Below, piece after piece: positions 27,077 through 27,964 of a stretch of DNA of 32,000 bases (position 1 is the stretch's first letter; each line of letters starts with the position of its first letter). Both the position numbers and the translations under genes were made by a program. Source of the DNA: Candidatus Baldrarchaeum yapensis (lineage in GTDB: Archaea > Asgardarchaeota > Baldrarchaeia > Baldrarchaeales > Baldrarchaeaceae); assembly GCA_016840465.1 (NCBI GenBank), contig JAEOSH010000001.1:1-32000 (forward strand), given 5' to 3'. Under the pieces are notes generated by a model. The model worked only from the letters and a program-made list of their open reading frames with translations. It was not told the origin of the DNA and did not search any database.

Positions 27077-27148
27077 GGTGCCTCCCTCCATAACAATAAT
27101 TAAAAATACACCAATTTTTCTCCATTCTGATACTAACAGGTGATGATA

Positions 27149-27454
27149 ATGAGCGGTGCACACACTGGAGCTAGTAGTGAAGAGTTCAAGGTTGCACTCA
27201 GAGGAGTCATTGTGAATTACAGAAGAGGAAGACACACCCAGAAAAATACTCACGTACTAATCAAGGTGCCAGGAATCGATAGCAGTAAGGAGGCTGCAAG
27301 ACTAATAGGGCGAAGAGTCTTATGGATCTCCGAGAGCGGAAAGAGGATCAAGGGTAAAATTGTCGATATTCATGGGAACAATGGAGTGGTTCGGGCGCGT
27401 ATGGAAAAGGGGGTTCCCGGACAGGCTTTGGGAACAGAAATACTGATATTATAG
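27149..27454 (+). CDS. rpl35ae: 50S ribosomal protein L35Ae (eL33)
   Basis: GVIVNYRRGRHTQ, LIKVPGIDS, GRRVLW, GKIVDIHGNNGVVRARM..GVPGQALG; GGTGA SD before ATG 27149. Confidence 0.96.
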   Translation: MSGAHTGASSEEFKVALRGVIVNYRRGRHTQKNTHVLIKVPGIDSSKEAARLIGRRVLWISESGKRIKGKIVDIHGNNGVVRARMEKGVPGQALGTEILIL

Positions 27455-27522
27455 TTCATGTGTCAGGAGACCTTCGCCTCATCATCTTCTCAGGTCGGCT
27501 CTTCCTACATCATCCACATGAA
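27455..27522 (-). ncRNA. Archaeal box C/D guide sRNA (sRNA-2)
   Basis: Minus strand: UUCAUGUG-G-AUGAUGU-AGGAAGAGCCGAC-CUGA-GAAG-AUGAUGA-GGCGAAGGUCUC-CUGA-CACAUGAA. Perfect 8-bp terminal stem, all four boxes, 12-13-nt guides; D' guide complementary to the 23S sequence GUCGGCUCUUCC. Confidence 0.93.
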
Positions 27523-27531
27523 TTTTTCACG

Positions 27532-27548
27532 GAAAATAGGTTTAAATA
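27532..27548. promoter_or_regulatory. BRE/TATA element between sRNA-2 and the ASCH-2 operon, possibly bidirectional
   Basis: GAAAATAGG-TTTAAATA on +, 27 nt before GTG 27575; the same bases read TATTTAAA on -, about 19 nt before sRNA-2. Confidence 0.55.
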
Positions 27549-27574
27549 TTATGTGATACCGGGCGTGATGATCC

Positions 27575-27964
27575 GTGGTCAAAATTTTGGACTTCGACCC
27601 CATTTTTGTCAAGCAGATACTTGAGAAGAAAAAGACAACAACAATAAGGAAAGGTATTAAGGACTTCAAAGAGGGAGATAGGGTCTATATAATGTCTCAG
27701 GGGAAAATATTCGCTGAGGCGGAGATTACAAAGGTGGAGGTTAAACAACTGTTCAAACTGACAGACGAGGATGCAAAAAGAGACGGTTTTTTGAACGTTG
27801 AAGAACTGATAAATGGTTTAAAGAAATACTATGAATCTGTAAAGCCTGATGATGTTTTTACGATAATACATTTCAACATCATTGCCACGTTTCTCAGCCC
27901 CGAGGAGGTACTTCAAACAAATGATGAAGAGAAGGAAAAACGTAACACTAGTAATAGCGAATAA
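27575..27964 (+). CDS. ASCH-domain protein (ASCH-2)
   Basis: LDFDPIFVKQILEKKKTTTIRKG, GDRVYI, LTDEDAKRDGF..EELINGLKKYY. Confidence 0.92.
   Translation: MVKILDFDPIFVKQILEKKKTTTIRKGIKDFKEGDRVYIMSQGKIFAEAEITKVEVKQLFKLTDEDAKRDGFLNVEELINGLKKYYESVKPDDVFTIIHFNIIATFLSPEEVLQTNDEEKEKRNTSNSE

Follow-up and report, generated by a model that had tools for sequence, protein, structure and literature searches.

The minus strand of the Candidatus Baldrarchaeum yapensis stretch analyzed here (the window, 32,000 nucleotides in its entirety) very probably carries, at 27522..27455, a genuine box C/D sRNA gene, which is predicted to direct 2'-O-methylation (Gm) of the 23S rRNA nucleotide equivalent to E. coli G2509 and whose second guide is an orphan. 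Direct reading of the minus strand showed that C, D', C' and D boxes follow one another within 68 nt in the canonical order and at canonical spacing (Table 1). The complete boxes and the 8-bp terminal stem that the initial annotation had described were borne out by this reading and by the reverse-complementary stem strands. The RNA class is well known, this sRNA would be an ordinary example of it, and the known mechanism is left unchanged.

Box architecture of the probable sRNA gene

Read 5' to 3', a single G separates the 5' strand of the terminal stem from the C box. The one deviation of the C box from the consensus is at base 7, a non-critical position that takes no part in the G-A, U-U and G-C contacts; the GA, U and G positions from which the K-turn is built are all kept. 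The spacer between the C and D' boxes is 13 nt in length, of which the last 12 nt constitute the D' guide, whereas the spacer between the C' and D boxes is 12 nt. The D' spacer exceeds by one nucleotide that of eight other C/D candidates of this genome. The terminal stem comprises eight perfect base pairs, seven of which are made in the minimum-free-energy fold (the outermost pair is missing), and the ends of the mature sRNA may lie a few nucleotides inside the bounds given by the stem. The locus has the sequence features by which archaeal box C/D sRNAs are recognized: C and D boxes, a D'/C' K-loop, spacers of ~12 nt, a terminal stem, at least one guide with nine or more continuous Watson-Crick pairs around N+5 to rRNA or tRNA and a host that encodes the core proteins.

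Table 1 Features of the sRNA locus (window coordinates)
Feature	Position	Strand	Basis or remark
rpl35ae	27140..27454	+	PF01247, 69 bits; convergent with the sRNA; stop codon TAG at 27452-27454
Box C/D sRNA gene, whole	27455..27522	-	Bounds set by the 8-bp terminal stem; RF00095 match 27460-27517; fold
Terminal stem, 5' strand	27515..27522	-	Exact reverse complement of 27455-27462
C box, AUGAUGU	27507..27513	-	6/7 versus RUGAUGA
D' guide, 12 nt	27494..27505	-	12/12 pairs with host 23S rRNA
D' box, CUGA	27490..27493	-	Sequence
C' box, AUGAUGA	27479..27485	-	4-nt loop after D', K-loop spacing
D guide, 12 nt	27467..27478	-	No credible target; orphan guide
D box, CUGA	27463..27466	-	Sequence
Terminal stem, 3' strand	27455..27462	-	Last base adjoins the rpl35ae stop codon
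TATA-like element, near-palindromic, A/T-rich	27541..27549	.	Sequence only

Class membership and host machinery

When the four boxes were written as a strict regular expression, three sites were found in the 2.27-Mb genome, none in the reversed genome and none in 20 block-shuffled genomes. In searches with RF00095 (snoPyro_CD, the generic archaeal/Pyrococcus C/D covariance model) all 58 model positions aligned end to end with the boxes in register (E = 2e-5 locally and 3.6e-5 genome-wide). The score of 33.2 bits was below the gathering score of 45 bits that sets membership of the family, but as the family was built on Pyrococcus sequences, this shortfall is weakly informative and says little on the class of the RNA. 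No Rfam family reached its threshold anywhere in the window, which is the reason that automatic annotation overlooks such genes. The locus ranked fourth among about eight credible RF00095 candidates genome-wide. About eight other C/D candidates are present in the genome, several of which have matches of 10-11 bp to host rRNA. The genome also encodes the proteins of a methylation RNP: the genes for fibrillarin (PF01269, 349 bits) and Nop5 (PF01798, 259 bits) are adjacent on contig C64 and there are two L7Ae-family genes, on contigs C67 and C94 (PF01248, 109 and 84 bits).

The lack of an orthologue in the nearest genomes (see below), the sub-threshold Rfam score and the orphan guide would each be compatible with a non-functional look-alike, either a chance motif or a dead and unexpressed sRNA gene. 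However, it is improbable that chance would produce the four intact boxes, the perfect stem or the unique 12/12 match to a known methylation hotspot, and very improbable that it would produce them together; a TATA-like element also stands at a suitable distance. Given this combination, we consider a look-alike highly improbable and retain the C/D sRNA identity originally proposed, which is supported by the boxes, the stem, the rarity of the four-box pattern and the local RF00095 E value.

Two further observations concern the plus strand of the window. A second box C/D sRNA candidate is found at 1420-1475 (RF00095 28.7 bits, E = 5e-4 genome-wide) and stops one base ahead of an ORF beginning at 1476. 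This candidate has two guides that are partly complementary to one another, and its best rRNA match consists of nine Watson-Crick pairs plus one G-U pair. A perfect C-box-like GUGAUGA at 27566-27572, right before the start codon of the ASCH-domain gene, is followed by neither a D box nor a second box pair and is most likely a coincidence.

The D' guide matches helix 90 of the host 23S rRNA

The D' guide forms 12 of 12 Watson-Crick pairs with the host 23S rRNA at G000:C59:3758-3769, which is equivalent to E. coli 2505-2516. The first G of the target is 2505, and the N+5 nucleotide is C59:3762, the equivalent of G2509; the numbering was checked against the E. coli line of the alignment of Dennis et al. 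2015 (PMC4644070), with A2451 as the anchor. Thus, the pairing with 2505-2516 and the methylation of 2509 proposed at the outset stood when they were read against the rRNA of the host itself. The 23S site is the sole perfect complement of the D' guide in the 2.27-Mb genome besides the antisense of the gene itself, and none of 300 shuffled D' guides reached 12 pairs (the best gave 10/12). The host rRNA operon lies on contig C59. As the non-rRNA part of this contig has the GC content of the genome (45.9%), the contig belongs to the bin. The rRNA is 65% GC and this fits, as expected, a heat-adapted organism. The same contig, which is outside the window, carries the RNase P RNA gene at G000:C59:4328-4690 (+; 199 bits), about 130 nt downstream of the 23S gene.

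From the 23S secondary structure we take positions 2505-2506 to belong to the central peptidyl-transferase loop and those from 2507 onward to form the 5' strand of helix 90, of which G2509 would be the third pair. This would put the predicted Gm in helix 90, at the foot of the peptidyl-transferase loop and next to the catalytic center of the ribosome. The initial annotation had placed the guided methylation in the peptidyl-transferase loop, a wording that is slightly loose: the duplex does cover 2505-2506 of the loop, whereas the G2509 that would be methylated is in helix 90.

Search for a target of the D guide

The D guide had been proposed to pair with 16S rRNA at the conserved GAGACC motif and to direct a Cm near E. 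coli 1112, on condition that the host 16S continued with UUCGCC, in which case one sRNA would serve both subunits. The host 16S reads CCCGCC after GAGACC. The resulting match is 10/12 and is composed of 6 bp, two adjacent central A/C mismatches and 4 bp; the six continuous pairs compare with a minimum of 9 bp that had been set beforehand. The position arithmetic was right (N+5 is C1112 on E. coli 16S), but the target itself is unsupported and, as the D guide fails on the host 16S, service to two subunits by this sRNA is unsupported as well.

There are grounds for giving the 16S site some weight. The six guide bases next to the D box pair with GAGACC (E. coli 1108-1113), which is universal in archaea, four more pairs are formed at 1116-1119 and the pair at N+5 is Watson-Crick. 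Moreover, the mismatched columns fall in a 16S stretch that is variable among Asgard archaea (CCCUUG, CCCGUG, CCCCUG), and the guide could lag behind a recent change of its target. Against this, 78 of 300 shuffled D guides (26%) also reached 10/12 somewhere in rRNA, and the two adjacent central mismatches leave six continuous pairs where the published target criterion asks for nine continuous Watson-Crick pairs around N+5 (PMC6009581). We therefore regard an additional Cm at 16S C1112 (C59:420), directed by the D guide, as most improbable.

An alternative published criterion for a second guide accepts a site no more than 100 nt away from the first target, provided that it has one mismatch at most and that the combined score is 32 or more (PMC6009581). 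The longest run of the D guide through N+5 was seven pairs. As to the dual-guide alternative, the 16S site (10/12) has two mismatches and is in the other rRNA, and the A-loop site, which lies 43 nt away from the D' target, also has two mismatches. No site with fewer than two mismatches was found in the host 23S or the partial 16S. Genome-wide, the D guide had 68 sites with at most one mismatch plus one G-U pair, where a rough count gave about 57 expected by chance. Among 24 tRNAs detected by ARAGORN the best match consisted of nine Watson-Crick pairs and one G-U pair with two mismatches, and no target was found in RNase P RNA or SRP RNA.

The host 16S gene is partial, its first ~700 nt being missing because the contig end cuts it at model position 706, and 5S rRNA was not found in the assembly. 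A target of the D guide could lie in the missing ~700 nt of the 16S 5' region or in 5S rRNA; no such target was found in the 16S 5' domain of eleven 16S genes or gene fragments from other Asgard families. By the published criteria the D guide is an orphan, and the sRNA would act as a single-guide sRNA. As 28% of the guides of Pyrobaculum are orphans (PMC6009581), an orphan D guide is ordinary.

Genomic setting and a possible antisense role

The sRNA ends on the base that directly follows the rpl35ae TAG on the opposite strand, as had been noted initially. The next plus-strand gene after rpl35ae encodes an ASCH-domain protein and starts at 27575. On the minus strand, the midpoint of the TATA-like element lies about 22 nt ahead of the sRNA 5' end; on the plus strand, the element ends 25 nt short of the ASCH start codon. 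Given the usual archaeal distance from TATA element to start, we infer that this element is a divergent promoter common to the sRNA and the ASCH gene and that the sRNA begins at 27522 or within a few bases downstream of it.

Downstream of the rpl35ae stop codon, the plus strand has its first run of five T residues at 27523-27527, past the entire sRNA antisense, and no run of three or more T residues intervenes between the stop codon and 27523. Hence, the rpl35ae transcript may run across the sRNA antisense. If transcription reaches 27523-27527, the rpl35ae 3' untranslated region would be fully complementary to the sRNA, and both guides have perfect complements in this presumed region. The sRNA could then be a cis-antisense partner of rpl35ae that affects the stability of the mRNA or methylates it, a role compatible with that of an rRNA guide. 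The convergent arrangement with zero spacing fits this proposal, and 3'-antisense placement of C/D sRNAs relative to protein genes has been documented in Pyrobaculum (PMC6009581). The argument is purely positional, however, and tight packing explains the position equally well; other sRNA candidates of this genome are also wedged in short spacers, in varied orientations. We consider the antisense role very unlikely and keep to the reading of the locus as a guide for 23S rRNA methylation.

Counterparts in other archaea and in eukaryotes

Helices 90-93 of domain V are a methylation hotspot (Dennis et al. 2015, PMC4644070). The supplement of that work contains predicted guides that act on the same nucleotide in the same register, the D' guide of Sac-sR7 and the D guides of MKAsR45, IHOsR165 and TtesR150, together with guides directed one base over, at C2510 (MKAsR7 and IHOsR473). 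The labels placed over this stretch of the published alignment include S7, K45, K7, I165 and I473 (PMC4644070); TtesR150 is unlabelled there (the Thermoproteus label is T50), and its assignment is our own parse of its sequence.

Like the sRNA described here, Sulfolobus acidocaldarius sR7 uses its D' guide, which ends ..AGAGCCGAA before the D' box, on the same 23S stretch with N+5 at G2509. It differs in its source (Thermoproteota), its degenerate D' box (UGGA), its unrelated D guide and its genomic context. Besides the boxes, the sequence common to the two RNAs was only the guide core that the target imposes, as judged by an unscored comparison by eye. Methanopyrus kandleri sR45, Ignicoccus hospitalis sR165 and Thermoproteus tenax sR150 are likewise complementary to 2506-2516 and place N+5 at 2509, but their guides are in the D position, and T. 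tenax has U instead of G at 2509. Human SNORD49A/B (U49) are also C/D snoRNAs aimed at the same helix-90 strand, but they are intron-encoded and their target is one nucleotide off, if 28S C4426 is the equivalent of E. coli C2510, as we take it to be by our own count from the A-loop positions. The assignment of C4426 to SNORD49A/B as a predicted target is published (PMC9622897).

Predicted guides for the same site in other Asgard archaea

A pattern made of the C-box core, the guide core and CUGA, directed at this rRNA stretch, matched in 10 of 400 Asgard genomes, and the reversed control gave no match. In family f19 (Njordarchaeota/Promethearchaeati) the guide core is in the D' position as in our sRNA, and three of the five matches have the AUGAUGU C box and the A that follows it; the f19 guide, however, lacks one base at the 3' end, which gives a spacer of 12 nt and moves N+5 to C2510. 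In family f16 the target is G2509 in the same register, but it is the D guide that would act on it, and the accompanying D' guide is for U2552 of the A-loop. The D' guides of these f16 sRNAs (L041:1501-1523, L042 and L043) make nine continuous pairs centered on U2552, 43 nt apart from the G2509 target of the D guide. This pairing was read against the 23S rRNAs of two other f16 genomes, as none was recovered from the three sRNA carriers. The f16 dual-guide sRNAs present a clear case of one sRNA that would span helices 90 and 92. The single match in family f30 (L035:2-23, genome G177) lies at the very start of its contig without a following C'/D pair and is probably a D-position guide whose sRNA is cut off by the contig end. 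The D guides are unrelated across the groups.

The f16 sRNAs, which are carried by three genomes, raise the question of whether the D guide of our sRNA is a decayed A-loop guide, or one that pairs without methylating, with an origin or function like that of the f16 sRNAs in which two neighbouring helices would be clamped during folding. In its 5' half, the D guide forms 6/6 pairs with the 3' side of the A-loop (E. coli 2554-2559), and in this register N+5 is on U2552 (C59:3805) as a G-U pair. Conserved guides having a non-Watson-Crick N+5 pair, and orphan guides derived by few substitutions, are documented (PMC6009581). The whole match, however, consists of eight Watson-Crick pairs, two G-U pairs and two mismatches, a level that was reached by 176 of 1000 shuffles (17.6%) within +/-100 nt of the D' target, and it breaks the rule of at most one mismatch (PMC6009581). 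In addition, the two guides stand in the opposite order to those of f16, and the loci show no synteny. An A-loop origin or function of the D guide is thus unlikely, and the preferred reading remains that of an orphan guide.

We searched for orthologues of the locus by several routes. With the 101-nt locus as the query, BLAST against 60 relatives yielded short chance matches and guides of the f19 and f16 types but nothing full-length, and no orthologue was found in four genomes of the same order (82-91% complete). The single relaxed-pattern match in those four genomes lacked a C box and was rejected as an sRNA. Exact-pattern scans of genome and metagenome contigs recovered Njord-type copies and none of the type of this locus. 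No rpl35ae, ASCH or GPN gene was present in the fetched flanks of the Asgard loci with homologous guides, and L35Ae, the ASCH protein, the GPN GTPase and the next ORF had no tblastn matches at any of these loci. No published catalogue of Asgard C/D sRNAs was found in the literature available for searching.

At L065:252, L068:1501, L074:569 and L075:1501, 23S genes of the f16 and f19 families read CUCCGCUGUCGG where the present genome and E. coli have CCUCGAUGUCGG. In the same-length alignment this gives C at 2503, C at 2500 and U at 2499 of the peptidyl-transferase central loop; A2503 is normally near-invariant. In the f16 genes among these, helix 89 is also strongly divergent.

Proposed mode of action and implications

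The box anatomy, the terminal stem, the unique perfect complementarity to 23S rRNA and the genes of the protein machinery are read directly from the genome. From these we infer transcription, RNP assembly and methylation of G2509 as follows. The sRNA would be expressed as a stand-alone gene from its own TATA-like promoter, shared divergently with the ASCH gene. L7Ae would bind the C/D K-turn and the C'/D' K-loop, and Nop5 and fibrillarin would join next. The D' guide would then pair over 12 bp with nascent 23S rRNA (E. coli 2505-2516), and fibrillarin would 2'-O-methylate G2509 in helix 90, the nucleotide opposite the fifth guide base counted upstream from the D' box. Counting against this scheme are the RF00095 score below threshold, the failure to find an orthologue, base 7 of the C box, the 13-nt D' spacer and the guide that has no target.

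More speculative functions can be envisaged. The sRNA might link what becomes of the rpl35ae mRNA to how much methylation RNP is present, through pairing with this mRNA or through its methylation, or the D guide might be a non-methylating folding chaperone for the A-loop; we think it very unlikely that either is the case. The reading that we favor, a guide for G2509, implies that the helix-90 site targeted in Sulfolobus, Methanopyrus, Ignicoccus and Thermoproteus is predicted to be targeted in at least three Asgard families as well, and that a change of one base in the length of the guide would suffice to shift the target between G2509 and C2510.
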